This document shows, in pieces, positions 3,158 through 53,667 of a stretch of DNA of 64,000 nucleotides (position 1 is the stretch's first letter; every line of letters begins with the position of its first letter). The stretch covers positions 32,001 to 96,000 of the forward strand of contig CAWJQI010000001.1 of assembly GCA_963845085.1 (NCBI GenBank), read 5' to 3'. This stretch comes from Candidatus Fermentibacterota bacterium (GTDB lineage: Bacteria > Fermentibacterota > Fermentibacteria > Fermentibacterales > JCC-6). The notes beneath the pieces are model-generated. The model was not told where the DNA came from. It saw only the letters and a list, made by a program, of their open reading frames with translations, and made no database searches. A program made the position numbers and the translations under genes.

Positions 3158-3235
3158 ATGAAGGGGGATCAAGCCTTTCTCCCCCATCATTCATCTCACC
3201 CCTATTCCCCCCGCTCGCCGTCGCCGGATTCGTGA

Positions 3236-3913: not shown

Positions 3914-4415
3914 CAGATAAGCCCCTTGGCGCGGAGGGAAGTCCAGCGGGGGGGGATCCCGGTCTTCCAGCGCTGAAGATCAGGTGATCCAGCAGTCTAA
4001 CCTCCAGGGGCTTCATCACCTCGATGAGGTGCTTGGTCAGGGCGATGTCCTGAGGGCTGGCTTCCTCCCGCCCACCCGGGTGATTATGGGCAACTATGAC
4101 GGCAGTTGCGTTGGTTTCGTGAAGAAGGAAGCTGACCAGCTCACGGGGGTAGACTGTGGCCCTGTCCACGGTTCCATTGGAGAGCAGGATCAGTCCCAGA
4201 AAGTCGTTGCAGGAGTTCAGCGCGAGAGCATAGAGGGCTTCGGTGGGCCTCTGTTCAAAGAGCCCTGCAAGGAACTCCATTGCTCTTTCCTGAGAATCGA
4301 TGGTATGGGGTGATGCTTCCAGGGTTATTCGCCGGACAGTCTTGTACGTTACTGCCTTCTCGGTAAGAATCAGCTTTCGGTTCCGTTGAAAGGCATGGAT
4401 CATCTCCGGGGTCAT
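3913..4415 (-). CDS. RadC-like JAB domain protein
   Basis: GTVDRATVYPRE...AHNHPGG...SPQDIALT...LLDHLI. The true stop is probably TGA at 3913-3915 overlapping the recombinase ATG, with an indel in the G-run at ~3950. Confidence 0.88.
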
Positions 4416-4804
4416 GGTCGACCTCCTTCTGGTCTGGATTGGAATGAAAAGGTTATGCCGGAAGCCGGCTGGATCAGTCAGAACTCAGATGGGAAGGGCG
4501 TACAAAAAGGTCCCCTCGCGGCGGGGTGTACAAAACCGAACGGTTGTGTACGTAATCAGCGCTTCATGTTGTTGTTGTACTTGTGTATATGGAGAGATGA
4601 ATGCAACTCGGCGCGGTTAGCCAGTTCTCAGGCGGGTATCGGGGTGTATACAAGGGTTCCGGGAGATGCTACCGTCCCTTTGTATAAGGGAGAGATTGAC
4701 TTAAGAGAAGCAAACAAGAACTAAATGGAGGGATTCATGCCCCTTCTCAAGATCGACGATACCAATTTCTGGCTTCACATTCGCTTGTGAACTGTGACTT
4801 GCTT

Positions 4805-7288: not shown

Positions 7289-7300
7289 CGTTGTAGCCTC

Positions 7301-8770: not shown

Positions 8771-8817
8771 GAAACACCTCCACAAATAGAGTGTGAAAGG
8801 TAGTTTGAAGATGGGAA

Positions 8818-8845
8818 AGATTAACAGCATTCCACAGGGCGTCAA
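8818..8845 (-). promoter_or_regulatory. Sigma70-like promoter for the 8770-4805 two-gene operon
   Basis: TTGACG-N16-TAATCT on the minus strand, ~50 bp upstream of the GTG. Confidence 0.45.
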
Positions 8846-9003
8846 GCAAAAGCTACAGAGCATTCCGCAGCCGCCCTCATCCCCTACCGCCGTGCAGCAC
8901 TCTTCCTCGTGATCCTCGGGCTGAAAGTCCTCCTGGGTCAAAGCAAGTCTTGGGCAAAGGCCACCGTTTTCACAGCAGCCCCCACCCTGCCAGGATGAGA
9001 AGG

Positions 9004-9357
9004 TTAGCTCGCTTCCTTCATCTCCACCCGGATGCAGTCCACGATCTCCCCGAAAGCCTCGCAGGTCGTGGGCTTCAGGACGATCCTCTCACCCGGCCAG
9101 TTGATGGCCTTGGGCTCGTGGAGAACCTTCGCAACGGCCTTGGCGTTGGTCTTGTTCAGGATCAGCTCCTTCTCGGTCTCCCTGAACCGGAGGATGTACT
9201 TCTCGGCCTTCTGGCCCGTGGCCATCTGAACCTTGTCCCTCAGGACCTCGGAGATGGTCAGGGACACGGGCTTCCCCTCGAAGTCCGCTGCCCGCAGGTA
9301 GCGGCTGGGGAACATCAGGTCAACGTGGAACTCAGGGTTGTCGTTCTTCTTCGGCAT
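9004..9357 (-). CDS. Phage-type hypothetical protein (FPSRYLRAAD motif), next to the exonuclease
   Basis: MPKKND...FPSRYLRAADFEGK...LILNKTNA...WPGERIVL...DCIRV. Confidence 0.7.
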   Translation of the reverse strand: MPKKNDNPEFHVDLMFPSRYLRAADFEGKPVSLTISEVLRDKVQMATGQKAEKYILRFRETEKELILNKTNAKAVAKVLHEPKAINWPGERIVLKPTTCEAFGEIVDCIRVEMKEAS

Positions 9358-9358
9358 C

Positions 9359-10218
9359 TCATTCCTCCACACCGTCGAAATCGACGGCTTCGTTGTCTGT
9401 TACAGCCCACGCCGGGGCTGCGAGTTCTGATTCCACAGGCCCGGGTCCCGGCCATTTCCCGGAAGCGGTGCACTCCTTCACCTGCCGGAGCCAGCCGATG
9501 TACTCCTCCCGCGCCCTGTCCAGGGAGTCCTCTTCCAGCCAGTAGAGTCGGCAGGCGTGGGGAGGATCCTTCTCCACGGCGATGATGCCGCAGCGCAGGA
9601 GAACACCCTTGCCGGAGGATGACGGCGTAGGCTTCCTGGTACATGGCTGGCCTGGTGGAAGTAGCCCAGGTTCCAGGCATGGGCGGAGAAGGTTCTGGGA
9701 TCGATGGAGCTGGTGGTCTTCAGATCAAGGATGGCTCCCTCTACTGAGATCCAGTCCAGCCTCCCCTTGCAGGCCAGCCCCGTCGGCGGGATTGTTCCAG
9801 AACAGGCTGACCTCTGGGAAGCCCTTCTCGAGCAGGGCGGCCACTTCGGGGGTTCCCCTGACGGAGTTCCTTATGGCCAGGGCGGTGTTGTACTCGGACT
9901 CCCTCAGGATGGAGCGCCCCTGCATCGTTGCCTCGTCTGCAAACTGCTGATAAGCGTTGCCCCTGCGGTCTCCCGGCCATAGGGCGTAAGTCGAGCTGGA
10001 ACCTCTCGGGCTCGAAGACTGCAGTGTGGGTCGCCCTTCCCAGAAGCATGGCCGGTGTCTCCGCCGGAGGGTGTCTGAAGGGCGTACTGGTAATGAAGCG
10101 GGCTCTTCGCCATGTGCTTCAGCGTGGAGAAGTTGATCCCCACGGCAGCGGCGTAGTCGGCGAACCGCATCTGCAGCCCGGGCCGCTTCGTTTTTGGGAC
10201 GAGTGTTCTGGTTGCCAC
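9359..10218 (-). CDS. RecE/exonuclease VIII-like PD-(D/E)XK nuclease (DUF3799-like), frameshifted
   Basis: Fragments INFSTLKHMAKSPLHY, AMLLGRATHTAVFEPERF, EVSLFW, LDLKTT and VEKDPPHAC across several frames. Confidence 0.82.
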
Positions 10219-10231
10219 GGCAACCTCCGTT

Positions 10232-10450
10232 CTATTCTGTGTCGGCGCCCAGCTCTTCCGCTGTGAAGGCTCCCACCTCGGGCCTCATGCCGTCCTGGAC
10301 AAGAAGCCAGAACACACCGTCGGCCCTGTGGATGACACCCTCTGCTGTGAGCCGGATGGCTTTGATCTGAACTGCTTCCCAGGAATCCAAGGGACCGCCG
10401 ATGATTTCCGGATCGACCCCTCCCCGGGCCAGGAGCAGATAGTAGTTCAT
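10232..10450 (-). CDS. Small hypothetical protein
   Basis: ORF coupled to both neighbours in the minus-strand run. Confidence 0.5.
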   Translation of the reverse strand: MNYYLLLARGGVDPEIIGGPLDSWEAVQIKAIRLTAEGVIHRADGVFWLLVQDGMRPEVGAFTAEELGADTE

Positions 10451-10818
10451 CTGGTTCGCCTTCCCTTCTTCCTCCACTTGGAGAACCTTTCCAGATCACG
10501 GGCACACATGCTGGCTGCCGTTGATATCACAGCGATGTCATCGAGGTAGCCGGCGACTGGAATGAAGTCGGGGATCAGGTCCATGACCCAGATCAGGTAG
10601 AGGATTGCCGCAACGATGGTCACTATCACTTCCACCGAGGCCTTGTACTCCCCATGAGAAGTGGCACTGATGTACTCCAGGAACTCGAGGATCTGATCGA
10701 ACACAGGGTCCAGTGAGGGGTTGCTGATGATCCCTTGTACCCGCTTCGTTTCCTCTCTGGTAAGGTATTGCCGGCCCTTGCAGAGAATCGTCTTGAACTT
10801 GTTCCATGCTTGTTTCAT
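10447..10818 (-). CDS. YkvA/DUF1232 family protein
   Basis: AAILYLIWVMDLIPDFIPVAGYLDDIAVI signature. Confidence 0.85.
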   Translation of the reverse strand: MKQAWNKFKTILCKGRQYLTREETKRVQGIISNPSLDPVFDQILEFLEYISATSHGEYKASVEVIVTIVAAILYLIWVMDLIPDFIPVAGYLDDIAVISTAASMCARDLERFSKWRKKGRRTR

Positions 10819-11023
10819 GGGCACCTCCGGGCAATTGCTTCGCCCGGGCTCACTGCCCGCACCCGCGTAAGGGTTCCCCCGGGCCTGAACGCAGGTACAA
10901 ACCCACATCAGGCCCCAAAGGGGTCTCTCAGGTCATGTGCGTGATTACTTTGGCCTTTGAGAAGCGGGCAGTATGGAATGAGCCCGGACGGGCGTGAAGA
11001 CTTCTGAGAGCCTTGAATGAGAC

Positions 11024-11827
11024 TCAGGCGGCGAGTTTGTCCACGAGGTTGCCCAGGAAGTAGTCGCCGACCTGCTTCGGAGGTGGTGATGAGGGCCCGG
11101 CCCCTGCCGTTGTAGGTGAGGCGGTGGGTCATCTCCTGCATGAGGTCCCAGAGGGTGTGGGCGTTGCCGAGGTTCTGGACGATGGGACCCCAGTCCCTGT
11201 TGGGCAGGGAAACGTTCTTCGCCACGGTGGCCAGGGTCTTGAGGTTCAGGCGGATTTTGGAGAGTGTGGCGATACGAGGAGCGATCTCTTCAAGGGAAGC
11301 AACGCCGTTCTGGATGACGGAGACAGCTTCCTTGAGATCGAAGCCTTGAGCAGCGGTGTGCTTCAAGGCATAGGTCGAGAAGTACCGAGGGCTCATCAGG
11401 CCATTGGTGCAGCTCAAAACGAAGGCCATCAACACGATCCTGAATTTGGCCGAGCCGTCGTAGGAATTCTCGACTCTCAGGCCGAGACGAGACGGCATCG
11501 CCAACTTCCGGGAGCTCGACGATCTGGTCGCTGCGGTAGAGGGTGGAGAGGAACCGACCTGTCCATATCGTCTTCTCCTCCACCCACCTCCACTTGGAAA
11601 GGGAAGTGATCTCCCGGGCTGTCTGCTGGGCCAGGCTGTTGGAGATGAGCTGATAGCCCTGGCTGTGGATGTTGATGCACTCCCAGGTGCCGTTGTCGTT
11701 GAGGATCTCGACACCCACCTGGGGGACGGCTTCCCCGTTCACGGAGACGGGGGCCAGCCTAACGGGGGCGAAGGGATCCGTCACGTTCAACTGTGCTCCG
11801 AATCGGAGCGAGCTTGTTACTGGTCAT
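11024..11827 (-). CDS. DUF932-family phage/plasmid protein, frameshifted
   Basis: HSQGYQLISN ... LGLRVENSYDGSAKF ... VLSCTNGLM ... KH motifs across two frames; ends approximate. Confidence 0.75.
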
Positions 11828-12046
11828 GAGAACTCCTTTCAGCGCCGGCTGAAACGCCGGGCAACATCACTGGCCGTGCGGGCCATGGTGATGATGGTTT
11901 TGAGGGCCAAAGCGATCCTGAGTATGGGAACGTGCATAGGAGACTCCTTTTGTAAGTGGTCATCTACATTATATTTATAACGTATAATGGGGGGTTTGCT
12001 GGTCGACAGCAAAGATGGGACTGAGGAAGCGAGTCCGATAAGGAAG

Positions 12047-12194
12047 ATGGACTGCGACTACCGAAGACCCATATGTGCCTTAGGCGGTCTAGCGCCGGAT
12101 GAGTATGCTGCAAGCCAATGTCTGGAAGCGGAATATGTATGTTGAAACAACGATTCCTAACCCTGCGGAGGGTCTACCTTTTGGCAAAGGCGCA
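12047..12194 (+). mobile_element. Degenerate IS3-family right-end remnant
   Basis: Translates as DYRRPICALGGLAPDEYAA, resembling the OrfB C-terminal RPHSALGGLTPxEYA; followed by an IR-like end in CA. Confidence 0.5.
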
Positions 12195-12460
12195 GAGAAA
12201 TATTATACTAATCAGTAATGTCTTTTAAAAATAGGGAAAACTAGAGATAGTGAAAAAGGCAAATGTTGATTTGCTACCTAATCTAAATCACTACTAATGT
12301 AAGTGCAGTGGCGAAAGAGATTACAGTGAGAATACTTAACGGAAGAATTACTTGGAAGCAATACTATAGCAACGAAATCCTAAACATCGATAATGTGTCT
12401 TTAGAACCATTAATATGACATTGTTCAATATCTGTTGTCCAAAAGAAATGGAGAATTAGT

Positions 12461-13267
12461 ATGCAACATGTATGTAGGTACCATAGCGGGTTACTTATAA
12501 TATGCATTATTCTTTTTATTTCAATATCAGCATCTGCATATAGATTTGCATATGATGAAGATAATGACATCATTATTGATACACTCAATGATCGGCAATG
12601 GAAAATCGCACCATACTCGAACAGCTGTACTCGCGTCGAAGCCAATGAATGGTGTCGTAACCTTGAGGGCAATTGGTATTTGCCTTCTGTAGCACTACTA
12701 AATGATCTTTATTGGTCGGGTATAACTGCGCGAGATTGGGGATATTTTGATATAAATCTTAACGGATCATCAATGTCATTTGTTTGGTCTTCTGATCGCG
12801 GTACATCTACCGATTTTTTGGTGAAGGCATATGACTTTGCTAGTGGCCAGGCCAGTGAAGTGTATTCTAATGTGGAATATGCTTGTAGAGTATTTGCAGT
12901 GAGACGAACCCCTGGCGATATCAACAGATTTGTTGAATATGATGATTCATTTCTTGACACTGTTACGGGATTTGAGTGGATGGTATACGAAATTAGCCCT
13001 TGTACATGGACAGAAGCTGAAATCTACATCAATAGTATTGGCAATGGGTGGAGAATGCCAACAAACAATCAATATATGGAATTATATGAAGCTACAATAG
13101 GGATAGAGTCTGAAGGACCTTTAGGGGAAGTTAAGAATACTTTTTGGTCTTGTACAACTGAAGGGTTGAGGGATCCATCAGTAGCCTTTGTGTTTTGCAT
13201 GTCTTTTGGCTCAAGCTTTGTTTTCCGGATAGATAGAGATGTAGCTAGTGTTTGTGTAATTCGATAG
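12461..13267 (+). CDS. Secreted protein with two DUF1566 (Lcl-type) domains
   Basis: Signal peptide; two units D..TG..W...TW.EA...C..L..W.(L/M)P...L..LY...WS...(C)V(I)R; AT-rich. Confidence 0.75.
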   Translation: MQHVCRYHSGLLIICIILFISISASAYRFAYDEDNDIIIDTLNDRQWKIAPYSNSCTRVEANEWCRNLEGNWYLPSVALLNDLYWSGITARDWGYFDINLNGSSMSFVWSSDRGTSTDFLVKAYDFASGQASEVYSNVEYACRVFAVRRTPGDINRFVEYDDSFLDTVTGFEWMVYEISPCTWTEAEIYINSIGNGWRMPTNNQYMELYEATIGIESEGPLGEVKNTFWSCTTEGLRDPSVAFVFCMSFGSSFVFRIDRDVASVCVIR

Positions 13268-13338
13268 TGATAAGTAAAATGAATAGCAATGAACAAAAAT
13301 GCATTTTTATAGTGTAAGGTCCATGAGATCTCATATGC

Positions 13339-13475
13339 TGTGGTCATCCCCTCTATAACTGGTCCAATCGGACTAACACAAAGTCTTAGATTAACATACG
13401 GGGGTGGACAGATCATGAAGCGGCATTCGAACGAGCAGATAGCCTTTGTGCTGAGGCAGGCAGAGAGCGGTGACC
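13339..13475 (+). mobile_element. IS3-family left end with truncated OrfA
   Basis: TG-initiated IR-like sequence, then MKRHSNEQIAFVLRQAESG from 13415. Confidence 0.65.
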
Positions 13476-13610
13476 AACCTTCACATTTCCCTACATTTTT
13501 CAATATTGCCCTGGTTGAGGTTCAGCATAGTATGTGGTATGCTTCCTTGCCTCGGCAGCAGGTGTCAACGCCGGTTATGAATGCTACAGATTGTCGACTT
13601 GGATGCGTCA

Positions 13611-13860
13611 CTACCTGTGTCTCCTCACCCCCCTCTCCGTCACCAGGCGTCGATCCCAGTGGTCACCCATCGCCAGAACCCTTTCGATCTCAATCCTGGG
13701 CAAGTCGAGTAGGGATAACCGTTGAGTAACCCTGGCCCTTGACAGCCCGTGCCTTCTGGCCAGTTCAGCCCTGGAGATACCGTCGCGCTTCAGTTCATCA
13801 GCGAGTTCGAGGGCGATTACCATGGGATTGCGGAATGTTTTCGTGATTTCAGCTCGGATT
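13611..13860 (-). CDS. Small HTH protein or remnant (ParB-like HTH)
   Basis: RNPMVIALEL...ISRAELARRHGLSRARVTQRLSLLDLP; start uncertain. Confidence 0.55.
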
Positions 13861-14054
13861 CGGTGGCCGGAATGATTCTGATGATGGTGAAACCCGGGCT
13901 GAGAATTTCGAGCGGGTACGATACGAGGCGCCAATTCGCTACCCACTCGAAGGGTTCATCACCATTAAGGGGGGCATCCCTTGCCTTAAATCACGATTTC
14001 AGTGCAGCAGAACACAAGTCTCTGTGTCCATCTCACCTCCCGAAACAACCCTGC

Positions 14055-14199
14055 ATTGGCCTTGGTGATGGCAACACGAGTATCCGCTTCCCGCACTATC
14101 GCCACGATCTGGGTTTCCGTGAATCTGGACTGCTTCATCCCGACCTCCTGGGTTGGCAGGAGGTCTCACTCTAACAAATGCCCCAAACCGGAAGCCTAC
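14055..14199 (-). mobile_element. IS3-family left end with truncated OrfA
   Basis: MKQSRFTETQIVAIVREAD from 14138; upstream 9-bp hairpin gacctcctg/caggaggtc covers the RBS. Confidence 0.7.
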
Positions 14200-14285
14200 G
14201 ACCCTAGTGAGGATGAATCCATTGCCCAACCCAAACATCCACTTAAGTATTGATTTTTGAATCCTATCCTTTTCATTTCATGCTT

Positions 14286-14345
14286 GCACAACGCTTAGTA
14301 TCAGTGGCGGTGCGAAGCGCCGTCCGTTGCATGCTATTGTTGGGC
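14286..14345 (-). other. Integron attC site (60 bp)
   Basis: Minus strand GCCCAAC AATAGC ATGCAACGGACGGCGCTTCGCACCGCCACTGAT ACTAAGC GTTGTGC: RYYYAAC inverse core, L boxes with an extra G, central hairpin, GTT core; overlaps the upstream gene's stop codon. Confidence 0.85.
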
Positions 14346-15326
14346 GACTGAAGCTTGGATGTTCCACTTTGGCGGATACCACTGAGGGACCGGCGACTGG
14401 CGCGGCGTGAACTTCTGCTTGATGCGGGTTCGTCCTGATTCTCCGTCGATCTCGGGATGCGCGACACGCGCGTACTTGCTGACCTCGCAGAACACGTTCT
14501 GACAATCGATGAGCTGCAGGCTACGTCCCCAAAGGCTCTGGAACTTCATACCCAGCCTCTTGAACTCGTCGTCCGCACGCTCGGCCATAACCTGGATGAT
14601 CTCCGCCTCCGTCAGGCCCGCCGTGTCTTTGAAGCACTTCCGGATTCCGTCCCGTGCGCCAGGCCCCGCGACGACAAAGTCCATCTCCGAGAAGTCAGTC
14701 AGCTCGCTGTAGTTGAGGTCGATCGCGAACTGGAACGCGAGAAAGTCCCCCAACGACGGATAGCCGCGCAGTAACTCGAACGCTGCTCGCAGCGAAGTCG
14801 TCTTCGGGAGCTTCCTTGGGGCTCCGTCAGCCATCATGTACTCGACGAGCCGCAGGTGGTTCCGGTGCTTCCGTGGGCTCCCGAACGCTGGCGAGGGCAT
14901 GATGTACGCGGCAGAGTAGACGCGCTGCCCGTCTTCAATCAGCCGATCCAGCACCTTCGCGTAAGTATCGAAGGCAAACTCTCGCCAGCACAGTGCACCG
15001 AGCTTCGTGCGGAGTGCTTCCCACGTCTCGATCTTGTTGAAGAGCTTGAACAGGATCGTTCGAAAGAAGACCTCCTCTGCCTTCTGCGAGCCTTCATAGA
15101 TCACGTGACGGATCAAGTACTGACTCACCCGGTCTGATGCACGATACGTGTTCGTGAACCGATGCACGCGGAGGATCGGGTCATCGGTCCACGGCGGCAT
15201 GCTGCCCAGCACGCGGCGCATGAACATCTCCTGACGCTCCGAAGCGAAGCGCCAGTACGTGTCGAATACGGGTGTCGTCTTGAGCACACGCCCGCCTTGA
15301 AGCCGGATCTCGTAGGGCGTTGGCAT
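14334..15326 (-). CDS. aGPT-PPlase1 / 5-hmdU DNA kinase helical-domain family protein (DNA base hypermodification)
   Basis: TYWRFASERQ...PWTDDPIL..HRFTNTYRASDRVSQY...LFKLFNKIETW...GDFLAFQFAIDLNYS...GPGARDG...DCQNVFCEVSKY. Confidence 0.85.
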   Translation of the reverse strand: MPTPYEIRLQGGRVLKTTPVFDTYWRFASERQEMFMRRVLGSMPPWTDDPILRVHRFTNTYRASDRVSQYLIRHVIYEGSQKAEEVFFRTILFKLFNKIETWEALRTKLGALCWREFAFDTYAKVLDRLIEDGQRVYSAAYIMPSPAFGSPRKHRNHLRLVEYMMADGAPRKLPKTTSLRAAFELLRGYPSLGDFLAFQFAIDLNYSELTDFSEMDFVVAGPGARDGIRKCFKDTAGLTEAEIIQVMAERADDEFKRLGMKFQSLWGRSLQLIDCQNVFCEVSKYARVAHPEIDGESGRTRIKQKFTPRQSPVPQWYPPKWNIQASVAQQ

Positions 15327-15328
15327 AC

Positions 15329-15886
15329 TTAATCGTTCCACTCGGTGCCCGTGCGGTTCTTGCCGAACGAGTCCCTTGAGTTGTCGGGCAACTCGCGGCT
15401 CTTCCGCAGATAAGCCTCATGAATCCACCCTTGCACGGATTCGGCGTCCTCCGACCAGTTGTGGATGCTCGCGAACCCGCACTTGATGTTGTCGTAGAGC
15501 CGCGGCGGGATCGTTCCGCGGTTGTACTTCAGCCGATCGACACGACCATAGTGCTTGTCGTAGGTCGGAAGCAGGATGCCGAGGAGCCCCGAGCGCGGGT
15601 TTGCCTTTGTGTCTCGGATCGACGAACCGATCTCCCAGTCGACATGCTTTCGCTGCCACGTAAGCGCGCCGATTAGTACGACAGTTACTGATGTGTCCCG
15701 AAGGTACTCGTCTCGAATCTTCTGCCGGATGGTCTCGGTAGGTAGGTTGGGATCGATGTCGCCGACATTCACTGACCCAGGAACGATGGCTCCAAAACTG
15801 TTCCCGAAGCGGAGCTCGAAGATGTTCTTGTATGACTCGTCAAGCTCGTGGTGATAGCTAACGAACACCTTGTGCGTGTTACTCAT
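15329..15886 (-). CDS. TIR domain protein (ThsB/DUF1863-like)
   Basis: HKVFVSYHH...IRQKIRDEYLRDTSVTVVLIG..TWQRKHVDWEI, with the catalytic Glu. Confidence 0.9.
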   Translation of the reverse strand: MSNTHKVFVSYHHELDESYKNIFELRFGNSFGAIVPGSVNVGDIDPNLPTETIRQKIRDEYLRDTSVTVVLIGALTWQRKHVDWEIGSSIRDTKANPRSGLLGILLPTYDKHYGRVDRLKYNRGTIPPRLYDNIKCGFASIHNWSEDAESVQGWIHEAYLRKSRELPDNSRDSFGKNRTGTEWND

Positions 15887-16930
15887 GTGATTCCTCTCGA
15901 AGATGAAGGCAGCCCTTGTCTGGCCTGAACGCCGTGCACTCGCTCAAGCCAGGCAGACCAAACTTGAACAAGCTGCGGATTTGTACAATCAGCCATGAGT
16001 GCTTGGGAGTGATCCAACCGGCCACGCCGACGAGCCGAATCGGCAGCAAGCACGCGGAGTAGGTTGCGATAACCGACCGGGGCATCATCAATCGCGGCGA
16101 TATGGGAGACCTGTGTCTCGTTGAGCTCCGGCGCCGTAAGCATGGTCATCCGCCGATACATCTCGCTGACGAGTTGCTCACCTCGGTCGATGGGCAAGGC
16201 AAGTGAATCGGTGTTCCTCTCCTCGGCCACCGGAGCGCCACAGGAGAACTCATCCAGGGCATCAGCGTAGATATGGAGGCTGTCACTCCACTGGTGATAC
16301 CCGCCAAGCTCGAGGCCAAGCCATCCAGCCATTACCTCCTGCAAGAGAGTGAATTGTGTAAGGTTATTTGGCAGACCCCGAAAGACGTCGTTACTTCGCA
16401 GCACCTGTGTCCACTCGAGGCGTCCGTCGCGAACCTTCAGCATCGACATCATGTTGCACGGCACATCCGCACTGCGGGGCGCCCCGTCGGCATGCGGTAG
16501 GTCGGTAAGGACATCCCAGAACTGGAGAGCGACCTGTCGGCTCTTCGGATCTGAGGACAAAGCAGCGCACGCTCGCTTGACCTGGTCGACACCGAAGTGC
16601 TTCCGCAGACGGTGGCCGTAGGCCCCCGTCATAGGTGGACCCATGGCCCGCGAACTTGGGCAAGCTCCGAAACCAGTAGTTCAGGACGGCGGCATCGTTG
16701 CTGCCAGCCAGAATCCAGAGTGCATCAGCGATGGCGAAGGCTGGGTTGACCCCAGGCCGACGGGAGAGGACCCAGCGCTGGCGAGGATCTTCAACCTCGA
16801 GGCCAACGTGCAGAAGCTCCAGCGTATCTCCCACGCGGCTTGGCTGCTTCGCCTGTGCTGCGGTCGCAATGACTGCTGCATGGGCTTGACGCCAAACCCC
16901 GTCAGCCGTTCGCGCGCGAAAGGTCTCCAT
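15883..16930 (-). CDS. Thymidylate synthase-family protein (frameshift near 16630)
   Basis: NPAFAIADALWILAG, GAYGHRLR, SRQVALQFWD, DVPCN (catalytic Cys), RSNDVFRGLPNN, SLHIY. Confidence 0.9.
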
Positions 16931-16932
16931 GA

Positions 16933-17595
16933 CTATTGTCTCGCCATCTTGCGTCCGCCGTTCTGGCAGCCCGGTTGTTGGCGAACGTGGCGCGCGAACT
17001 CCAGAGGATCGCCCTGGAAGCCCCACTTCCCCTGTTGCTCAAGCCAGCTCGCGAATGCAGTAGCGAGCTCGTCCTTGAAAACACGATAGCCTCGCGCCTT
17101 GCAGCAGATGTCCTGGTCTGTCTTGCGGAAGGGCCGAAAGTGCTCCGGGATCACCGGTGCGGCCTCTCCCCAGTAGACGAACTTCGTGCCGACGAGTACG
17201 CGATTCGTGCTTGTGTCCCAGGCGATGTTGGCCTTGTTGGGTCGGCCGTTCTCCAAGCTGTGGTGCGAGTCTGCCTGGACCCACCGCTTGCCTTCGCGGT
17301 GATAGATGTTGTCGCCGTAGATGACTTTGAGGCTGCCGTTCAGGTTTGGACGCTTTCGAAGGAATCGTGGATCGGTCCAATACTTCTCGAAGTCGAGGAC
17401 CTCGGCCACCTGCATCGCGTAGATGAGTCGGCCAGTGAAGTCATACCTCGACTTCGCGCCCGTCCCGATGATCCAGTCACCAACACTCGCACCGGCGCGG
17501 ATCCTTGGCTTACACGTCGCCAAAGTGCAGAACCCGTGGAACGGGTTCGGGGCGAATCCGAAGTCACGCGCGACGATGTACGAGTAAAGCCTCAT
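16933..17595 (-). CDS. Nucleotide modification-associated domain 2 (Nmad2) protein
   Basis: MRLYSYIVARDFGFAPNPFHGFCTLATCKPRIR...GDWIIG...YGDNIY...SHHS. Confidence 0.85.
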   Translation of the reverse strand: MRLYSYIVARDFGFAPNPFHGFCTLATCKPRIRAGASVGDWIIGTGAKSRYDFTGRLIYAMQVAEVLDFEKYWTDPRFLRKRPNLNGSLKVIYGDNIYHREGKRWVQADSHHSLENGRPNKANIAWDTSTNRVLVGTKFVYWGEAAPVIPEHFRPFRKTDQDICCKARGYRVFKDELATAFASWLEQQGKWGFQGDPLEFARHVRQQPGCQNGGRKMARQ

Positions 17596-18078
17596 CCGCA
17601 GGTATACCTCTTGCCTACCCAGACCGGTGTCGTGCGCGGGTTCCCCGTGGCGGGGTCGTCCCAACCGGTAATCTTGCCGTTGATCGCATCGACGACGCGA
17701 TCTCGCTTGCCAACCGACAACCGCAGCGTCGCCGTGCTTCCGAAGCTCGTCCGGGATGTCTGCGTCCGTCGCGCCCTGAGCGAACACGCCGACGACGTTC
17801 TTGCCCTGCTCGATGGCGTACTTGATCTCCCATTTCACCCAGTCGCTTTTCACCGTGTCGTGCGTGATTAGCACTGCTAGCGTGCTGGCCCACTGGATGC
17901 GGGGAGCGAGGATTTCGCGCTTGATGTATTCCTCGTTCGACGCCGCGTTGGGCTTATCGCTGTTGATCGACCCGTCGCGCACCTCCATCCCGGCCTTCGA
18001 GATGAGATCCTTCAGCTTCGGCAGAAGGTCGTCATCCTCGTGTACGTGAGAGATGAAGATGTTCTTCTTGTCCGCCAT
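17592..18078 (-). CDS. TIR domain protein (ThsB-like); frameshift near 17705
   Basis: KNIFISHVHEDD...ILAPRIQWASTLAVLI...SDWVKWEIKYA; the shifted frame ends DRVVDAINGK...RYTCG-TGA, overlapping the Nmad2 ATG. Confidence 0.88.
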
Positions 18079-18083
18079 GCTCT

Positions 18084-20144
18084 TCACTCCGCGCTACCAG
18101 CCATCGCTGGACGGTTGCATTCCTGCATGCCGTGAAGAATCAGTTCTACGATCCGCTCTGCTGATCGCGTCATGGCGAGCTCACGGTTCTCATCCTCGGT
18201 CAGCCCGTTCTTAATGCCGGCTATACCGCGCGACTTCAGCTCATCGGCGATCGCGTCGTACTCATCCCATGATTCACCCCTCCGCTGGTAAATCACTCGC
18301 AGCTCCTCGGAGTACGGTGCTGTCTTCTGGTGGTCCCACTGTAGCTCGGGCCTGGAACGGCCCTCCAACGCATCGAACACTAGCCGAGCGCAGCCACCGA
18401 ACGCGCCGACGAGATAGACAGGGCGCTCGGTACGGATGGTCAGGAGCGCTTCCTCAAGCACTCCCGGCATTCTGCCCCGATAGCCATCCCCGGCTGGCCC
18501 GAGACGGCCTCCGACGACGACGCGCGCCGCGACCTCATCGGCTTGCCGCTGCCGCATGATGGTAAGGCCGCGAGCCCATGCAAACCGTCGCATCGCGCGA
18601 GTCCACGGGGATGTCCGTTGCCGGCGCTGCAACGAATGCCGTGATCGACCGTCTCGTTGAGCCCTGCGGGCCTCGCGCAACGGCGCACCTCCACCAGCGC
18701 GCTCTGTCTATTAAGGCGAGCGACGACGGCTGGGGTAGTCGCGACAGGCCACGCCAAGTACGAGACCAGCTCTGCCGGGCGCGCGGCGCCAGACACAGCC
18801 TCGCCTCGAAGTTGCTCGATGGTCGGGTCGTACAAGAGGTCCGCGAGACGGACGGTATAGCCGACGGAGCCGAGGTGGCCGCCGTACGCAAGGCGAACTC
18901 CGGCTACCAACAGGTATCGCGAGATCTCGAGCAGCACCTCGTCGAGGTGCGGCTTGCGCAGACCGAATCGCGGGAGGTCTTCCGACTCCGAAATCGATAG
19001 CGCGACAAGGAGCTGCTGCGCCCGCAGGTCGTGGGCCTTGGCATGGCGCTCAAGAGGGGTCTCGACCGTGTACTCCCGCGAGGGATAGCACGGCGAGCTC
19101 CTCTGTTCCGAGCGGAGGATCGGGATACAGCAATGGCTTCGCCTTGTCCCGGTGCACCACCGTCACGAGCTCAGGACCCGAGGGGAGGATGTCGTCTCCA
19201 GGGCGTGCGCGCTGACGAAGCATCTCCTCCGCGTATGCGTGACGGAGGGTCTCTCGAAGAAGCGAGTCGACGACATCTCGCGGGTCGTCACGCCACCGGA
19301 GTACGGGCGCATTGCCTGCGTATGGGAAGCGCCGAATCTCGCGCTCCTGTAGCGCGTCGACGATCACGAACGGCCTCTGGTAGCGCTTCGCGAAGAGGAC
19401 CTCTCTGCGGCACCACGACCGTGACGAGTAGGCATCGGTCGCAACTGCGAGGAGCGCAGAGTCGGTCACTCCGTCCTCAATCGCCTTGGCGAAGCGAGAA
19501 CCGGACGCGATATCTCCGCAGTCGAACCAGGTCTTCTCCGGCTGGTTCGCCTTCAAGTACTCGAGCAGCGAGTTAACAACGCCGGGCTTCTTGCCCACAT
19601 CGATCTTCGCGTGGCTGAGGAAGATGGTCACCGCAGGGGCGTCGTCGTCGGTCGGGTGCGGGCGCAGACGGCGGATCAGAAGGTGCAGCATCCGACGCGC
19701 CACGAACTTCTTGCGCTCCTCATCATCGGGCTCATCGAACGCTCGAAGGAAGCTCAGGTCTTTGAGGCGCTCGTCGACTGGCCAAGCAAAGCTACTGAGG
19801 CTCACGGGGAGGAAGCGATGGTTGGGAGACTCGTCGCAAAGCTCGCGGAGCTTGACCGCGTAATCCCCCCACGTGATACCGCCGTCCTTGCCGGTCCTCG
19901 AATGCACGACAAGCTGGTCGTCAGCCAGCAGCACGACGAGCACGCGGTCTGCCTCGTCGCTGAGTCGCGGCTCGGGCGGCATGAACGAGTAGTCGTCAGG
20001 CGTGAAGCTGGTGGGGATGCGAAGGCCTGGAACCGCAGCGTCATCGTTGATGACCGCTCGGAGGTACTCTGCCATTGCGGAGGCATCGGTCGACGCAGGA
20101 TGAAACTCGAATTGAACAAGTACTGGAAAGCGAAGTCCGCTCAC
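18084..20144 (-). CDS. TIR + SLOG domain fusion protein (frameshifted)
   Basis: TIR: IFLSHAK...WFD..DIASG...AYSSRSWCRREVLFAK. SLOG: ALSISES...LAYGGHL...MR...ARVVVGG...GRMPGVLEEA...PVYLVGAFGGCA. GAGGAG RBS before the GTG at 20144. Confidence 0.85.
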
Positions 20145-20822: not shown

Positions 20823-23186
20823 CTACCACCTCTCCGGCACACTTCTCCAGATCTGGTCGAAGGCTGCCTGCCAGCTCTTTGATTCACCGAGTTGCCTGGC
20901 CTTCTGGGCCATCGCTTTTCTTGCTGGTTCGTTGTCGGTGAGCTCAATGATCTTCTGGGCGAGGTCCGCGGCGTCCCTTCCGTGGTAGGTGAGGCCTGTT
21001 TCGTTTGGTCTGATGATCTCCTGGGGGCCGCCCATGTCGGTTACGATGGCGGGGAGGCCTGAGGCCTGTGCTTCGAGAACGCTGTTGCCGTAGGTGTCGG
21101 TGGTGGATGGGAAGACGAAGATGTCTGCGGAGGCGTATGCCTTTGAGAGGTCCTCGCCCGACATGCGGCCGGCGAGGTAGCCGCCGTTGCCGAGTATCCT
21201 GCTGCCCAGCTCTCCCATCCAGGGGCCGTCGCCGACTACGAAGAGCTCAATGTCCTGCCTGGTCTGCCTGACGATGTTGAATGCTTCGGCGAGGACGTCG
21301 AGGTCTTTTTCCCGGCTGACCCTGCCGGTGTAGAGGAGTTTTGTTGCCTCTTTGGTTCCGCCGAACTTGGTGAGGAATGCTTCGTCTCTCCACTTCGGTG
21401 AGAAGGTCTCGGGGTCGGTGCCCCTGGGGAAGGGTTCCATCTTCTTGCGGTCTACGCCGAGTGATGCGAGGTCGTCCATGTAGTAGGTGCTGGGGACCAT
21501 GACGCGGTCAACCATGCTGTAGAACCATGTCATGCCGCCCGCTGCGAACTCGCCCATCCAGGCGTCGGCCACTATCTCCCTGATGTGCCTGGGGAAGTCG
21601 GTGTGGTAGATGCCGACGGTGGGGATGCCGAGGATCTTCGCTGCCGCGATGACGGCAAAGCCCATGGGGCCGGGCGTGGAGATGTAGATCATCCCGAACT
21701 CGTTCTCCTCGAGGAACCTGAGGAGTTCGAGTATCGGGGGGATGGCGAGGGTTTTTGACGCGTAGTCGGGAACGGGGAACTCGGTCACGGGCTGGAAGTT
21801 CACAAGCCAGCCCGGGAAGGAGATCTGACGGCTCTGGCTTGTTACGAGGGCAAGCTCCTTGCCGTTGTCCATGGCGAGCCTTGCGAACCTTTGGAGGGTT
21901 CGGGAGACTCCGTTCAGGTCGTCTATGGTGTCGGTGACCCAGGCTCTTTTTTCCAAATTGTGGGCGGCGGGGGAAGCGATGTTGAGGTGCTTTGTGATGG
22001 TGTTGACCGATTCCCTGCCCCTCTTCCTGTCGAGGTAGGCTATGGGGAACGGGGCGTTGAGGAGGAATACCGGGAGCATGGCGTTGAGCGAGCCCACGGC
22101 GTCGAGCATGCGGCCCTCGCCGAACCTTGTCACCATGAGGCCGATGAACCTCTGGAGGAGGCGGTTGGTGAGGCGGTTGAGGATCTGGAAGGTGCGCTCC
22201 TCTATCCCCTCCTGGAGAAGCTCGGGGCTGCCCCTTCTGAGGTTCAGGTCACGTCCTATCTCTACGAGTTCGTCGCCGAGGAAGGTTTCGAAATCGGGTT
22301 CCCCCGACTTCTTCGCCTTCTTGAGAAGCTGGTGGAAAAGGAAGTCGGCCTTGTGCCAGAGTGTCGGTTCCTCTTCCTCAGTGTTGGTTTTCGGGCTGAA
22401 GAAGCTGTCGGCGGCCATGGTGGCGACCGAAGGGACCTTTTTGGCGTTGAGGGAGTGGCGGTAGAAGCTGTAGGCGATGGAGTAGACGGCGTATGCCGAC
22501 CTGGTGGCGGTTCCGTGTTCACCGCCGGGAACCCCCTCCCCGTTCCTTACTGCCTTCAGGAAGTCTTCTGTTGTTTTTGCCTTCGGAACCATGGTCCAGG
22601 TGAGGCCTATGAACCTTCCGCAGTGGTCGTCGCTTCCCGCGGTGCAGCCCGTGAAGCTCCGGCCCTTTATGGCTGCGGCCGTCTCGAGGGCTGCGCTGTT
22701 CTCCCACGAGGCGCGGGTGCCGTTCCTTACCTCGATGAGTTCCATCGCCTTCACAAGGTCGGTCCATTCACCGGGGGGAAGGTGCCCCCCCGGTGAGTAG
22801 AAGGGATGCGCCAGCGAGTGGGCGATTTGTTGGTCCCTGAGGTATTCGAGGAGTTCGAAGCCCCTTTCCCTCAGGGCTGATATCCTGTCGTGCTGTTGGT
22901 GGTCGATGCCGTAGACCAGGATGTGAACCATGCTCTTGCTCTCGGGCATTACCATGGCCACCTCTTCGCTCATGAACACCCCGGGAAGGCCATTTATCTT
23001 CATGACGCCGTCGATGGTGTTCATGTCGGTTATGGTGACGAAGTCCATGCCGCGCGAGCGGGCCTGCTCGTACACGAGTTCGGGGGGTGTGAAGCTCTCG
23101 GGAGCCTTGAGGGCCCGTAGTATCCAGCGCGCCGAAGTGGTTGAGGCGCTGGAATGAACGTGCATGTCACATTTCCGTGAAGTCAC
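20823..23186 (-). CDS. PHP domain + GT4 glycosyltransferase fusion
   Basis: DMHVHS, FVTITD, AHP, GSDDH at the N-terminus; GIYHTDFP, GRVSREK, DTYGNSVLEAQASGLP at the C-terminus. Confidence 0.9.
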   Translation of the reverse strand: MTSRKCDMHVHSSASTTSARWILRALKAPESFTPPELVYEQARSRGMDFVTITDMNTIDGVMKINGLPGVFMSEEVAMVMPESKSMVHILVYGIDHQQHDRISALRERGFELLEYLRDQQIAHSLAHPFYSPGGHLPPGEWTDLVKAMELIEVRNGTRASWENSAALETAAAIKGRSFTGCTAGSDDHCGRFIGLTWTMVPKAKTTEDFLKAVRNGEGVPGGEHGTATRSAYAVYSIAYSFYRHSLNAKKVPSVATMAADSFFSPKTNTEEEEPTLWHKADFLFHQLLKKAKKSGEPDFETFLGDELVEIGRDLNLRRGSPELLQEGIEERTFQILNRLTNRLLQRFIGLMVTRFGEGRMLDAVGSLNAMLPVFLLNAPFPIAYLDRKRGRESVNTITKHLNIASPAAHNLEKRAWVTDTIDDLNGVSRTLQRFARLAMDNGKELALVTSQSRQISFPGWLVNFQPVTEFPVPDYASKTLAIPPILELLRFLEENEFGMIYISTPGPMGFAVIAAAKILGIPTVGIYHTDFPRHIREIVADAWMGEFAAGGMTWFYSMVDRVMVPSTYYMDDLASLGVDRKKMEPFPRGTDPETFSPKWRDEAFLTKFGGTKEATKLLYTGRVSREKDLDVLAEAFNIVRQTRQDIELFVVGDGPWMGELGSRILGNGGYLAGRMSGEDLSKAYASADIFVFPSTTDTYGNSVLEAQASGLPAIVTDMGGPQEIIRPNETGLTYHGRDAADLAQKIIELTDNEPARKAMAQKARQLGESKSWQAAFDQIWRSVPERW

Positions 23187-23223
23187 TGCGCACCTTCCTG
23201 TTTATTCGTGAAGATACAACCCG

Positions 23224-24216: not shown

Positions 24217-26072
24217 CTTCGTTCTCCGGTCCCGATGGTTATGCCGAACGTTCTCGGCCTGCCGCGGTACCCGCCGGATTCCTCGTAGTCGGTTCCGGCG
24301 GCGTTGGTGACCCACGCCGCAAGCCTGGTCACCCCGATGGGGAACGCGGCGCTGGCGTCGAGTATCAGATAGGGTTCGAGGCTTTCCGTCTCGGTCCTGT
24401 TGGTGAACCTCCTGCCCTGGCCGGAGAGCGAGAGCTCGAACTCCATGCTTCAGCGTTGCCAGGGTTAAATGGCCTCCTCCGGTGATTTGCGGCCTGTAGG
24501 GAATGAGCATGCCCTCCCTTGTCGTTCCGGGCGTCTCGTCGGTGGCCGTTGCGAAGGTCACGTTGCCCCCGATTCTGAACGGACCGGCGGTTGCCGCCGC
24601 TTCGAGCTCGACCCCCCTTGAAAGGCTGCTTGCGGTGTTTTCCGGAACCCAGATGCCGTCCCCGTCGGGAAGCCAGAGTATCAGCCGTTTTGTGTCGGTG
24701 ATGAAGCCGGTTGCGCAGAGGGCTGTATTGCCTGCGGTGATGTATCTGAGGCCTGCCTCGGCCCCGATGGACGTCTGGGGAAGGAGGTCGGGGTTGCCCC
24801 GGGCGAAGGCGTCGGAGGGCCAGTAAAGGTCGTTGAACGTGGGAACCGTTGCGTCACGGGAGACCGCTGCCCAGGGAATGATCGTTCCCGAGCCGCTGAA
24901 CCGCTGCCCTGGCGTTCCACCACGGTTCTCCGTCGGTTGCTCCGCCCCTGAGCCAGATTGAGGCTGTCCGGTTCTCCCACCCCACTGCGCTCCATGGTGT
25001 TATTCTGAAGTGGCTGCCGGAGGCGGAGCTTTCCAGGCCGCGCCACTGGATACCCGAGCGCGCTGCCAGTGGTCCCAGTGTGAAGGCGGCCTCCGCGTCG
25101 GCCCCGAAGTCGGTGTGTCTGTCGTCCTGAACCTGGGGAACGGTGCTCTTGAAGGCCATGCCCCCCGCTCCCGCCCTTAGCGTGACGGGGCCTGCGCCCC
25201 CCCAGAACTCAAGCTGGCCCTGGCGCCTTGTGGCGTCGGTTGCGAGGGTCCAGTCCGGCGATTCGGTCTCACCGTCGGCCCCGGTTGCCAGGATGCCCCA
25301 GTTGCCGTTCGAGAGAATTGATGTCAGTGCGTACGCCGTGCTGCCTTCGGCGCCCACCGACCTTTTGAGCGAGATGCCGAGGCGGCCCGGGCGTGATGTC
25401 TCCGTTGTAACCCACCCTCGCGCCCCCCCTGTGGTCGGCTTCGGCGAACAGCCGCCAGGGGCTGCCGGCGGCTTCCGTCCTGTAGTTGAAGAAGCCTGCC
25501 ATGCCCCCGCCCACGGCAGTTGAGCCCCCCCTTCCCACCTCAAGCGCGCCGAACACGGCCGGGTCGGAAAGCCCTGCGGGCAGGCCGTCACGCGCGGTCT
25601 CTACGGGATGGCCGTCTATCATCCATCTGGAATGCCCGGGGTCGGCCCCGCGTGACGACAGCGAGATGACGGGCATGGCGCCGCCGTACTCCCTTGCCGC
25701 AATGCCGGGGGTGAGTTTTGCAAGGGCCCTGGAGCCAGTTCTTGCAAGGTCCTGAAGCTCGTTTGAGCCAAGGGTTACAACGGATGGGACCGATGCCCTG
25801 AAGGATGAGCCCCGTGCAGCCACGAGGATCACGCCGCCCGACGAGACCGGGAAGGGTTGCAGGATTGCCGTGTTCTCTTCCGGGCTGCCCGTCCAGTCCC
25901 TGAAGCCGGTGGCGTGGACGGTTATGCGGCCGGGCTCGTCACCCGTCGGTTCGTACCGGCCGTAACTGTCGGTCTGCCCGTACCATGCGCCGTCCCAGCC
26001 GACCCATGCGCCGGGAACGGGTTCACCTGCGGGGTCGGTGACAAGCAGCGAGGCCATGAGGAAGAGAAGCAT
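24213..26072 (-). CDS. TonB-dependent receptor, BtuB-like (multiple frameshifts)
   Basis: Carboxypeptidase-regulatory-like N-terminus; plug PGI...SRG...IDGHPV...LEVGRGG; VPTFNDLYWP...GNPDLLPQ; C-terminal GYRGRPRTF; under a B12 riboswitch. Confidence 0.8.
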
Positions 26073-26157
26073 AAAAAAAACCGCCCTTCATTCGCTGCCG
26101 CGAATGCAGGACGGCCGGCGCGAACCCTGAAGCGGGGTTCAATACACCGTGCAGCCC

Positions 26158-31364: not shown

Positions 31365-31490
31365 GGCGGCTCCTAACGTTACGGGTGTCAGTGTCACCGG
31401 TTGGAATGCAGATAATGCAGCAGTCTTGCCGCTTGTGCAATACCGGAAGGCCCCGGGCGCGTTCGCCCGGGGCCGTAAACGGTCCGCCCT

Positions 31491-53541: not shown

Positions 53542-53667
53542 TTCTCTCCTAAGTGCAAAAAAGCACCCTCATTGAGGGCCAGACCATACTGAACATCGTT
53601 GTTCAGCACGCGAAACTAATCAACGAAAAAAAGTGCGTCAAGTATTCCGCACATGGCCCTGTAACAG

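Follow-up and report, generated by a model that had tools for sequence, protein, structure and literature searches.

Does an operon that places TIR and SLOG domains beside homologues of phage thymine-hypermodification enzymes form a functional unit, and what might that unit do? The question is raised by six co-directional genes on the minus strand at positions 14334-20144 of a 64,000-nucleotide stretch of a Candidatus Fermentibacterota genome (GCA_963845085.1, contig CAWJQI010000001.1, positions 32,001 to 96,000), referred to below as the window. The operon, delineated from a list of open reading frames (ORFs), a three-frame view and Pfam searches, encodes, in order, a TIR-SLOG protein (gene 1), a ThsB-like TIR protein (gene 2, TIR2), Nmad2 (gene 3), a protein resembling thymidylate synthase (TS; gene 4), a second ThsB-like TIR protein (gene 5, TIR3), and an HMUDK_hel protein (gene 6; Table 1). 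The feature is real, non-random and widely conserved, and the minimal unit of its family is the pair of a ThsB-like TIR and Nmad2. The window operon is a six-gene, TIR-SLOG-bearing, kinase-less variant of this TIR-Nmad2 family, which also contains the DS-4 system of Escherichia coli. As to its role, we tentatively favor, at slightly less than even confidence, a horizontally acquired anti-phage operon in which Thoeris-like signaling is gated by a modified-pyrimidine module.

The original prediction had proposed six minus-strand genes in this order and tightly packed, and the ORFs, the three-frame view and Pfam agree with it on each point. The resolution into six genes derives from the three-frame view combined with a tblastn comparison of the window with the intact proteins of a homologous locus, L007. 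In the raw ORF list, the TIR_2 domain of gene 1 lies in the ORF 19050-20144, and its SLOG cluster 2 domain is split between the ORFs 18440-18937 (profile positions 30-117, 1.3e-12) and 18084-18680 (positions 118-264, 7.2e-37). A 384-aa raw ORF at 16933-18087 carries both ThsB_TIR and Nmad2, which appear fused in this frame because of an insertion near 17705, and the TS-like gene is represented by the ORF 15883-16644, containing the Thymidylat_synt domain, and by an overlapping ORF, 16391-17026, that corresponds to its N-terminal part. The stop codon of gene 1 (18084-18086) abuts the start of gene 2 (18087); ATGA overlaps connect TIR2 with Nmad2 (17592-17595) and the TS-like gene with TIR3 (15883-15886); Nmad2 and the TS-like gene are separated by a 2-nt gap (16931-16932), and TIR3 and HMUDK_hel overlap by 13 nt (15329-15341). 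A search for sigma-70-like promoters around the operon was negative, and terminator-like sites occur there at chance level. PADLOC recognized the TIRs alone among the six proteins, and the only NCBIfam models to match them were for TS, with scores under the cut-offs. None of the six proteins contains a Walker A motif or matches a kinase family in Pfam, and no SIR2 domain was detected in genes 1-6 or in the scanned flanking ORFs.

The conservation of the operon was assessed from its homologues in other genomes. Searches at E <= 0.001 yielded 6,473 homologues of Nmad2 and at least 8,000 of HMUDK_hel; the 120 best homologues listed, which come from several phyla, are 64-94% identical to the Nmad2 query and 73-91% identical to HMUDK_hel, and the best of them (80-94% identical) belong to Myxococcus, Sorangium, Dehalococcoidia, Bacteroidetes, Spirochaetes, Shewanella, and others. 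With one genome per species, at least 557 Nmad2 loci were confirmed among 599 pattern matches. Our census covers the best 80 of these loci by similarity to the query, with the intact proteins of L007 and L011 as tblastn queries (E <= 1e-5, within 8 kb of Nmad2), and its counts are lower bounds because contig ends cut several loci. TIR2 lies directly upstream of Nmad2 in 78 of the 80 loci, and in nearly all of them its stop codon overlaps or abuts the Nmad2 start; of the two exceptions, L078 has only 76 bases between the start of Nmad2 and the locus end, and in L037 Nmad2 contains a stop. MazG was found in 51 loci and TS in 13 (either one in 64), HMUDK_hel in 50, TIR-SLOG in 47, and TIR3 in 36, and all six families occur together in 23. 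The exact gene order of the window recurs in L003-L021 except L008 and L018, with a MazG plus MazG_C protein (PF18722, 6.1e-78) replacing TS in most of these loci; TS stands between Nmad2 and TIR3 in L002 and L007 alone, and L008 has a TS-like gene elsewhere in the operon.

More distant loci retain the TIR2-Nmad2 pair and exchange its partners. For instance, L052 and L025 encode a Thymidylate_kin-like kinase fused to HMUDK_hel; L026 (10639-12331) and L029 (10566-12309) encode a radical SAM/SPASM protein and a glycosylase of the uracil-DNA glycosylase (UDG) superfamily instead of TS and HMUDK_hel; L038 (7496-8632) has a radical SAM gene, and L072 (11785-12435) combines MazG_C and UDG. In the radical SAM/UDG loci, the TIR2-Nmad2 core is combined with another kind of nucleotide or DNA module. 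In L053 (10700-14447), Nmad2 is followed by a SLATT_3/SLATT_1 protein with two transmembrane segments and by a TIR-WD40 protein, which are possible alternative effector and sensor genes, respectively. Thirteen Nmad2 proteins are longer than usual, with fusions to TIR (1), MazG_C (1), SLOG cluster 2 (1), and PF18754 (7), and five viral or proviral contigs contain TIR2-Nmad2 together with MazG or HMUDK_hel. Two of the loci reside among defense genes: the L011 operon (3804-16286) separates hsdM/RhuM from hsdS of a type I restriction-modification system and is followed by a Schlafen/AlbA_2 gene, and that of L007 (11947-17569) adjoins a type III restriction-modification system (a Res/Mod pair) and a resolvase. 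The proposal that TIR/SLOG genes and hypermodification-enzyme homologues form a joint unit is thus upheld, as this unit is conserved and recurs across many phyla in defense islands.

Among 40 relatives of the host, which include 7 members of its genus and 17 further members of its family, none gave an Nmad2 match. Synteny with the same-genus genomes ends near window position 20800; in one of them (G005), the 16.7 kb upstream of the matching point show no return to it. The operon is at the edge of a horizontally acquired element.

The original prediction considered this system undescribed, but a five-gene relative is in print: DS-4, identified in E. coli by DefensePredictor (Science 2026), comprises TS, a deoxynucleoside monophosphate (dNMP) kinase, HMUDK_hel, TIR and Nmad2, and was cloned and scored as defensive (PMC13092281). 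DS-4 works from a plasmid in E. coli MG1655, where it reduces the size of lambda plaques, with a -log efficiency of plating of 0.93 (PMC13092281, Table S7). Its TIR was annotated by the authors as NDT/MilB-like (CMP N-glycosidase 4JEM_B, HHpred probability 0.99) and also as ThsB_Global (PMC13092281, Table S8). In the accessible text of the same paper, 5-hydroxymethyluracil kinase and thymidylate synthase are included in the new domains of validated systems, operons with MazG, MazG-C, NMAD, UDG, and aGPT-Pplase are given as predicted and non-validated, and the main text offers no discussion of mechanism for DS-4 (PMC13092281). As far as DS-4 is described there, the two operons share the TS-like protein, HMUDK_hel and a ThsB-like TIR directly before Nmad2, with homology deduced from shared Pfam families and motifs, as well as a C-terminal Cys on the TIR and the same invariant Nmad2 motifs; in contrast, DS-4 has a separate dNMP-kinase gene, whereas the window form is devoid of any kinase, and DS-4 lacks both TIR-SLOG and the second ThsB-like TIR. 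In the remaining literature on Nmad2, HMUDK, or SLOG with TIR and thymidylate synthase, we found no description of the bacterial operon: the 5-HMUDK papers concern phage DNA modification or chemical use, Lee et al. (2018) make no mention of TIR, Nmad, MazG, or SLOG, and PMC9503650 and PMC13069673 do not describe it.

The three TIR proteins point to Thoeris. Gene 1 starts with a region of about 170 aa without a family match, for which an Atlas search returned no named cluster, followed by TIR_2 with the motif WCRRE and then by SLOG cluster 2, for which a sequence search found no solved relative; its intact homologue in L007 (a 733-aa ORF) matches TIR_2 (1.8e-10) and LD_cluster2 (2.3e-63). TIR2, with the motif WVKWE and a conserved R-Y-x-C tail at its end, matches the PADLOC ThsB1 model PDLC00418 (2.1e-45), and its profile matches solved ThsB/TIR chains and did not find MilB among the solved structures at E <= 0.01. 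TIR3, with the motif HVDWE, matches PADLOC ThsB models and, marginally, the solved ThsB1/BcThsB (E 0.011). The conserved Glu residues that the original prediction had assigned to these motifs are present and are kept in 44/44 tblastn matches covering the position for WCRRE, in 78/78 matches for WVKWE, and in 40/40 for HVDWE. The Glu of TIR2, which is invariant in 28/28 alignment rows, is presumably catalytic. In an alignment with 6LHY, a Glu stands opposite that of TIR2, and the 6LHY structure paper names no catalytic Glu.

The likeness to Thoeris thus comprises ThsB-type TIRs with a conserved Glu and a SLOG domain in the presumed effector. With respect to type I Thoeris, a ThsB TIR is present (Pfam 3.5e-21 and 8e-16 for TIR2 and TIR3; PADLOC 2.1e-45), whereas a ThsA protein with SIR2-SLOG is absent; indeed, the window operon has neither a SIR2- nor a Macro-type ThsA, as had been noted before. 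Instead, its SLOG domain is of cluster 2 (PF18163) and is fused to TIR_2 and to the N-terminal region without a family match, and the operon includes three more genes from nucleotide or DNA-modification families. For type III Thoeris (ThsD), the available accounts describe several TIR proteins, encoded by several genes per operon, together with a SLOG effector (10.64898/2025.12.03.692087; PMC13276650); the window, compared with these accounts by description only, has three TIR domains and one SLOG.

The second half of the operon points to pyrimidine chemistry. For the intact TS-like protein of L007, the best solved relative is the cytidine monophosphate (CMP) 5-hydroxymethylase MilA (2.4e-24), versus approximately 1e-11 for thymidylate synthases, and the TS-like protein is 36% identical to gp51 of phage PaMx11 (5e-43) and matches PHROG 5131 (2.7e-57). 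Its catalytic Cys (VPCN) and its RSND motif align with PC(H) and RS(G)D of the solved enzymes, and the Cys is kept in 13/13 tblastn matches. In the alignment, the TS-like protein has Asn, and MilA has Asp, where thymidylate synthase has its base-specificity residue. Gene 4 is accordingly best described as a putative TS-like enzyme of the hydroxymethylase type. The mildiomycin biosynthesis pair MilA/MilB, a CMP hydroxymethylase and a hydroxymethyl-CMP N-glycosidase, is relevant on two counts, as no solved protein matches the TS-like protein better than MilA does and the DS-4 TIR was annotated as MilB-like; the differences are the Asn in place of the Asp and the genomic setting, a defense island versus an antibiotic gene cluster.

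The aGPT-PPlase1 label originally given to gene 6 does not hold, because the protein matches HMUDK_hel (PF18723) alone, with nothing else, including aGPT-Pplase/ADDT, at E <= 10. Gene 6 encodes a stand-alone version of this helical domain of phage 5-hydroxymethyldeoxyuridine (5-hmdU) DNA kinases, without a P-loop; kinase-HMUDK_hel fusions exist at other loci, namely L052 and L025. It is 27% identical to PaMx11 gp50 (2e-21) and matches 492 phage records, with Salmonella phages (164) the most numerous, ahead of those of Pseudomonas (68) and Vibrio (62); the listed matches include PaMx11, a maker of hypermodified thymidine. In PaMx11, gp49 (P-loop kinase), gp50 (HMUDK_hel) and gp51 (TS-like) are clustered with gp46-gp48 for thymidine hypermodification, so that window genes 6 and 4 are homologous to two adjacent phage genes. 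However, the phage adds the P-loop kinase gp49, the amino-acid:DNA transferase gp46 (PF18724), an oxidase, and an acetyltransferase, whereas the window operon has none of these extras, including the P-loop 5-hmdU kinase and the amino-acid:DNA transferase that characterize phage hypermodification, and instead encodes three TIR domains, SLOG, and Nmad2.

Structural models allowed us to propose folds for HMUDK_hel and Nmad2. Foldseek returned no match in the PDB at E <= 0.001 for either model; what supports both folds is VIA-align, together with how uniform the hit lists are. The HMUDK_hel model (predicted local distance difference test score, pLDDT, 92.2) aligns best with QNG1/DUF2419 (Z 10.2, root-mean-square deviation (rmsd) 5.7 over 239 residues) and with PaMx11 gp46 (Z 10.2, rmsd 3.9 over 221 residues), followed by Mag1, AlkA, OGG, endonuclease III, and MutY, and all 23 rows with Z >= 5 are of the HhH-GPD type. 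A glycosylase-like HhH-GPD fold is predicted; the Z scores are middling for a helical protein, and it is the uniformity of the list that is persuasive. The resemblance to gp46 extends to the fold alone, and we discarded gene 6 as a gp46-like transferase: gp46 matches a separate family, PF18724 (1.6e-27), and the HMUDK_hel profile gives gp46 a probability of 0.2%. Sequence searches of gene 6 against solved structures produced weak annexin-repeat matches alone (best E 0.0014).

Nmad2 contains many invariant polar residues, and its homologues share the motifs C-T-L-x-T-C-K-P, G-D-x-I-Y, and S-H-H-S. In VIA-align, the top 17 rows for its model (pLDDT 76.7) are all PUA-like proteins (Z 5.7-7.8), the structural neighbors including YTH, EVE, ASCH, McrB-N, VcaM4I, and THYN1, and Foldseek gives ASCH with a probability of up to 0.96 (E 5.5e-3). 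With moderate support, Nmad2 is predicted to adopt a PUA-like (YTH/EVE/ASCH) fold. Such folds are used elsewhere for reading modified bases. No match to Nmad2 was found in 50,697 phage records, so phages offer no direct precedent for whatever it may read. A model of the TIR2-Nmad2 complex scored 0.82, versus 0.00 for the best of 3 controls; the mark applied was reached by 116/157 solved complexes and 2/215 mismatched pairs, and is a rough guide here, as our own alignments were used. The runs share at least 80% of contacts, with partner pLDDT of at least 89. In the modeled interface, TIR2 residues 115-120 and 150-163 lie against Nmad2 residues 10-29, 84-92, and 110-115, such that the C-terminal tail of TIR2 meets the invariant S-H-H-S / C-T-L-x-T-C-K region of Nmad2. 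The model supports binding between TIR2 and Nmad2, its score expressing the confidence of a prediction rather than a measured interaction.

From gene content, conservation, predicted folds, catalytic residues, island context, and the modeled interface, we infer the following possible sequence of biochemical events. The nucleotide module (TS or MazG, together with HMUDK_hel) would make, remove or recognize a 5-substituted pyrimidine nucleotide or base during infection, and this event would release a TIR that Nmad2 holds by its C-terminal tail. The ThsB-like TIRs would then convert nicotinamide adenine dinucleotide (NAD+) to an ADP-ribose-derived signal; its binding by the SLOG domain of gene 1 would switch on the TIR domain of the same protein as an NAD+-consuming effector, and the infection would be aborted. 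TIR-SLOG would thus be the effector in the six-gene form, with SLATT or other proteins substituting for it elsewhere. A comparable logic is known from PUA-Cal-HAD, in which a PUA-type domain binds a modified deoxynucleotide as the infection signal; the likeness is one of logic only, as that system, in the portion of the report available, acts by depletion of deoxynucleoside triphosphates (dNTPs) by a filament and contains no TIR, SLOG, TS, or HMUDK_hel (10.64898/2026.01.15.699771).

Several observations weigh against the Thoeris-like scheme. TIR-SLOG is not a universal effector, because DS-4 defends without it and 33 of the 80 loci lack it. The MilB-like annotation of the DS-4 TIR means that the TIRs may act on pyrimidine nucleotides rather than NAD+. 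SLOG cluster 2 is without a solved relative, so that analogy is the ground for assuming that it binds a signal. Z scores stay below 8 for Nmad2 and around 10 for the helical HMUDK_hel, which makes the structural matches middling, and the phenotype recorded for DS-4 is weak and concerns one phage (PMC13092281). The catalytic residues retained in the TS-like protein fit an enzyme better than a passive sensor, and the anatomy of the operon is all that was observed directly, its biochemistry being extrapolated throughout. Finally, the window copy may be dead, because three of its six genes are out of frame in the assembly.

The main rival to Thoeris-like signaling, itself unlikely, is an attack on the nucleotide pool, that is, a catabolic cascade rather than a signaling one. 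The TS-like enzyme would make 5-hydroxymethyl-(d)UMP, or MazG would convert dNTPs to dNMPs; the TIR-like proteins, SLOG and HMUDK_hel would be nucleotide N-glycosidases, as are MilB, LOG, DNPH1, and QNG1, splitting pyrimidine nucleotides into base and sugar phosphate and leaving phage DNA synthesis starved or poisoned; and Nmad2 would regulate the first glycosidase. Such a cascade is consistent with the relationship of the TS-like protein to MilA, whose partner MilB is an N-glycosidase, with the MilB-like annotation that the DS-4 authors chose for their TIR (PMC13092281), and with the top structural match of HMUDK_hel, the queuosine-5'-monophosphate glycosylase QNG1 (Z 10.2). TS and MazG, which alternate in one slot of the operon, are both nucleotide enzymes, and a preprint on TIR systems proposes that the effector of type VIII Thoeris is a CMP hydrolase (10.64898/2025.12.03.692087). 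However, TIR2 matches the ThsB models of PADLOC (2.1e-45) and Pfam, and the solved chains that its profile retrieves at E <= 0.01 are of ThsB/TIR type and do not include MilB; SLATT and TIR-WD40, effectors typical of signaling systems, occur with the same core; and four or five glycosidase-like proteins in one pathway would be redundant.

A second rival concerns the window copy itself, which could be a decaying pseudogene cluster with genuine frameshifts and with its function lost in this organism, whatever the family does elsewhere. Relative to the intact homologues, three of the six genes carry single extra bases in DNA alignments, five in all and none within a homopolymer: +A near 19071, +T near 18644, and +G near 18598 in gene 1 (tblastn and DNA alignments), +C near 17705 in TIR2, and +A near 16629 in the TS-like gene. 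With five frame-breaking insertions over 5.8 kb, the operon exceeds the density in the conserved backbone, where 4 events affect 2 of 13 genes (window 21.5-43.2 kb, compared with two same-genus genomes), and IS-like remnants adjoin the operon, all of which would fit decay. On the other hand, every one of the five is a +1 insertion outside homopolymers, and homology runs unbroken over each break in tblastn alignments, with no nonsense codons or deletions. Similar breaks occur in two backbone genes that are whole in both same-genus genomes: a TonB-dependent receptor gene (24225-26087) is cut by three +1 shifts near 25400, 24900, and 24446, within 1.9 kb, and a catalase gene (32214-33739) has one shift near 33440 in the opposite direction (one base lost or two extra). 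The assembly is 88% complete despite comprising 5 contigs, compared with 92-98% for its genus mates, and the window Nmad2 is 94% identical to an independent metagenomic protein. Because the same kind of break affects backbone genes and the completeness is low, assembly error is the probable cause of the five insertions, and loss of function in this organism appears correspondingly doubtful. None of the public sequencing runs contains the stretch (best word shares 0.07, 0.06, and 0.05). Apart from the operon, the assembly appears to hold scattered single-base insertion errors.

An improbable alternative is modification-dependent recognition, in which Nmad2, as a PUA-like reader, and HMUDK_hel, with its predicted base-flipping fold, would recognize 5-hydroxymethyl-pyrimidine or hypermodified bases in the DNA of an incoming phage and trigger the TIRs, with TS or MazG countering the replacement of thymine by the phage. 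The homology of genes 6 and 4 to the adjacent gp50 and gp51 of the PaMx11 thymidine-hypermodification cluster, the 492 phage records matching gene 6, PaMx11 being among those listed, the presence of the 5-methylcytosine/5-hydroxymethylcytosine readers VcaM4I, McrB-N, and THYN1 among the structural neighbors of Nmad2, and the UDG genes that accompany some variants are all compatible with it. However, the only effect recorded for DS-4 in the accessible data is against lambda (PMC13092281), whose DNA is without such bases, and sensing of hypermodified phages alone is weakened because of this phenotype; moreover, the TS-like enzyme would itself make hydroxymethyl-pyrimidine in the host, and Nmad2 has no match among the 50,697 phage records.

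In a further scheme, which we consider quite improbable, the nucleotide enzymes would build an activated 5-substituted pyrimidine, its hydroxymethyl made into a leaving group as phages do in thymidine hypermodification, and this would be joined either to the invariant C-terminal Cys tail of the ThsB-like TIR or to ADP-ribose. In the former case, the tail would sit in the conserved Nmad2 pocket, as in the complex model, and nucleobase-protein conjugation would prime or gate the TIR. A parallel to such conjugation would be type IV CBASS (cyclic-oligonucleotide-based antiphage signaling system), for which deazaguanylation is reported. In the latter case, a hybrid pyrimidine-ADP-ribose signal would be read by SLOG cluster 2. 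A modified nucleotide may itself be the signal, as the original prediction suggested among its options. Hypermodification of self DNA, with host DNA marked by a thymine derivative in the manner of restriction-modification and the TIRs guarding the pathway, is highly improbable. In its favor, the family names refer to hypermodification of DNA bases, homologues are entered at NCBI as "putative DNA base hypermodification protein", and some variants carry a full kinase-HMUDK_hel fusion or radical SAM enzymes. Against it, the window form has neither a kinase (no Walker A motif) nor an ADDT/aGPT-Pplase transferase, the operon is absent from 40/40 relatives and moves between phyla at 80-90% identity, a patchy transfer that is hard to square with genome-wide base replacement, and DS-4, by the published account, functions when moved on a plasmid into E. 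coli MG1655.

The surroundings of the operon are summarized in Table 1. To its left, positions 1-14300 form a mobile-element-like stretch. To its right, the synteny with same-genus genomes starts at a gene for a glycosyltransferase family 4 (GT4) protein, which is 96% identical to its counterpart in another genome (G004) over the 566 residues contained in that locus. An AbiEii-type toxin gene belongs to the conserved backbone, with a 61%-identical counterpart at the syntenic place in same-genus genomes, and two small RRM_1-domain proteins are encoded as neighbors farther to the right.

Table 1. Genes of the TIR-Nmad2 operon and other features of the window, with their supporting matches.
Feature	Position	Strand	Match or remark
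Gene 1, TIR-SLOG	18084..20144	-	TIR_2 2.7e-10 and SLOG cluster 2 (PF18163); three insertions
Gene 2, TIR2, ThsB-like TIR	17592..18087	-	Pfam ThsB_TIR 3.5e-21; one insertion
Gene 3, Nmad2	16933..17595	-	Pfam 5e-70; intact
Gene 4, TS-like	15883..16930	-	Pfam Thymidylat_synt (PF00303) 1e-17; one insertion
Gene 5, TIR3, second ThsB-like TIR	15329..15886	-	ThsB_TIR 8e-16; intact
Gene 6, HMUDK_hel (PF18723)	14334..15341	-	Pfam 4.6e-116; intact
N6_N4 methylase fragment	186-596		
Resolvase	3239-3979		
RadC	3810-4484		
Sel1-repeat protein	4808-7300		831 aa
DUF3799 PDDEXK fragment	9481-9870		
DUF932	10911-11823		apparently frameshifted
Segment of 40% GC (guanine plus cytosine) with Lcl_C-domain gene	12419-13264		
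Short ORFs	13313-14253		resemble IS3-type insertion sequence (IS) transposase remnants by eye; no Pfam match
792-aa protein	20826-23201		GT4 glycosyltransferase at its end; weak match to "GT4 in conflict systems" (2.4e-9)
AbiEii-type nucleotidyltransferase toxin	30522-31490		PF08843, 6.8e-12
Small RRM_1-domain protein	53260-53568		2.8e-27
Small RRM_1-domain protein	53719-54087		4.4e-26

The TIR-Nmad2 family joins two fields that are usually kept apart, namely TIR/Thoeris immune signaling and phage thymine-hypermodification chemistry, and it has one validated member, DS-4, with a mechanism in print for none of its steps. To this, the present analysis adds the census with its minimal TIR-Nmad2 core, the alternation of TS and MazG, the predicted folds, and the predicted tail-in-pocket interface. 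The census provides a minimal unit, a testable interface, at which the Cys tail of the TIR is predicted to enter the Nmad2 pocket, and a set of natural swaps; these swaps (TS or MazG; TIR-SLOG or SLATT) separate the core of the system from its exchangeable parts. Should the TIRs of this family prove to use pyrimidine nucleotides as substrates, or should the signal include a modified base, the range of known bacterial TIR enzyme activities would be widened.

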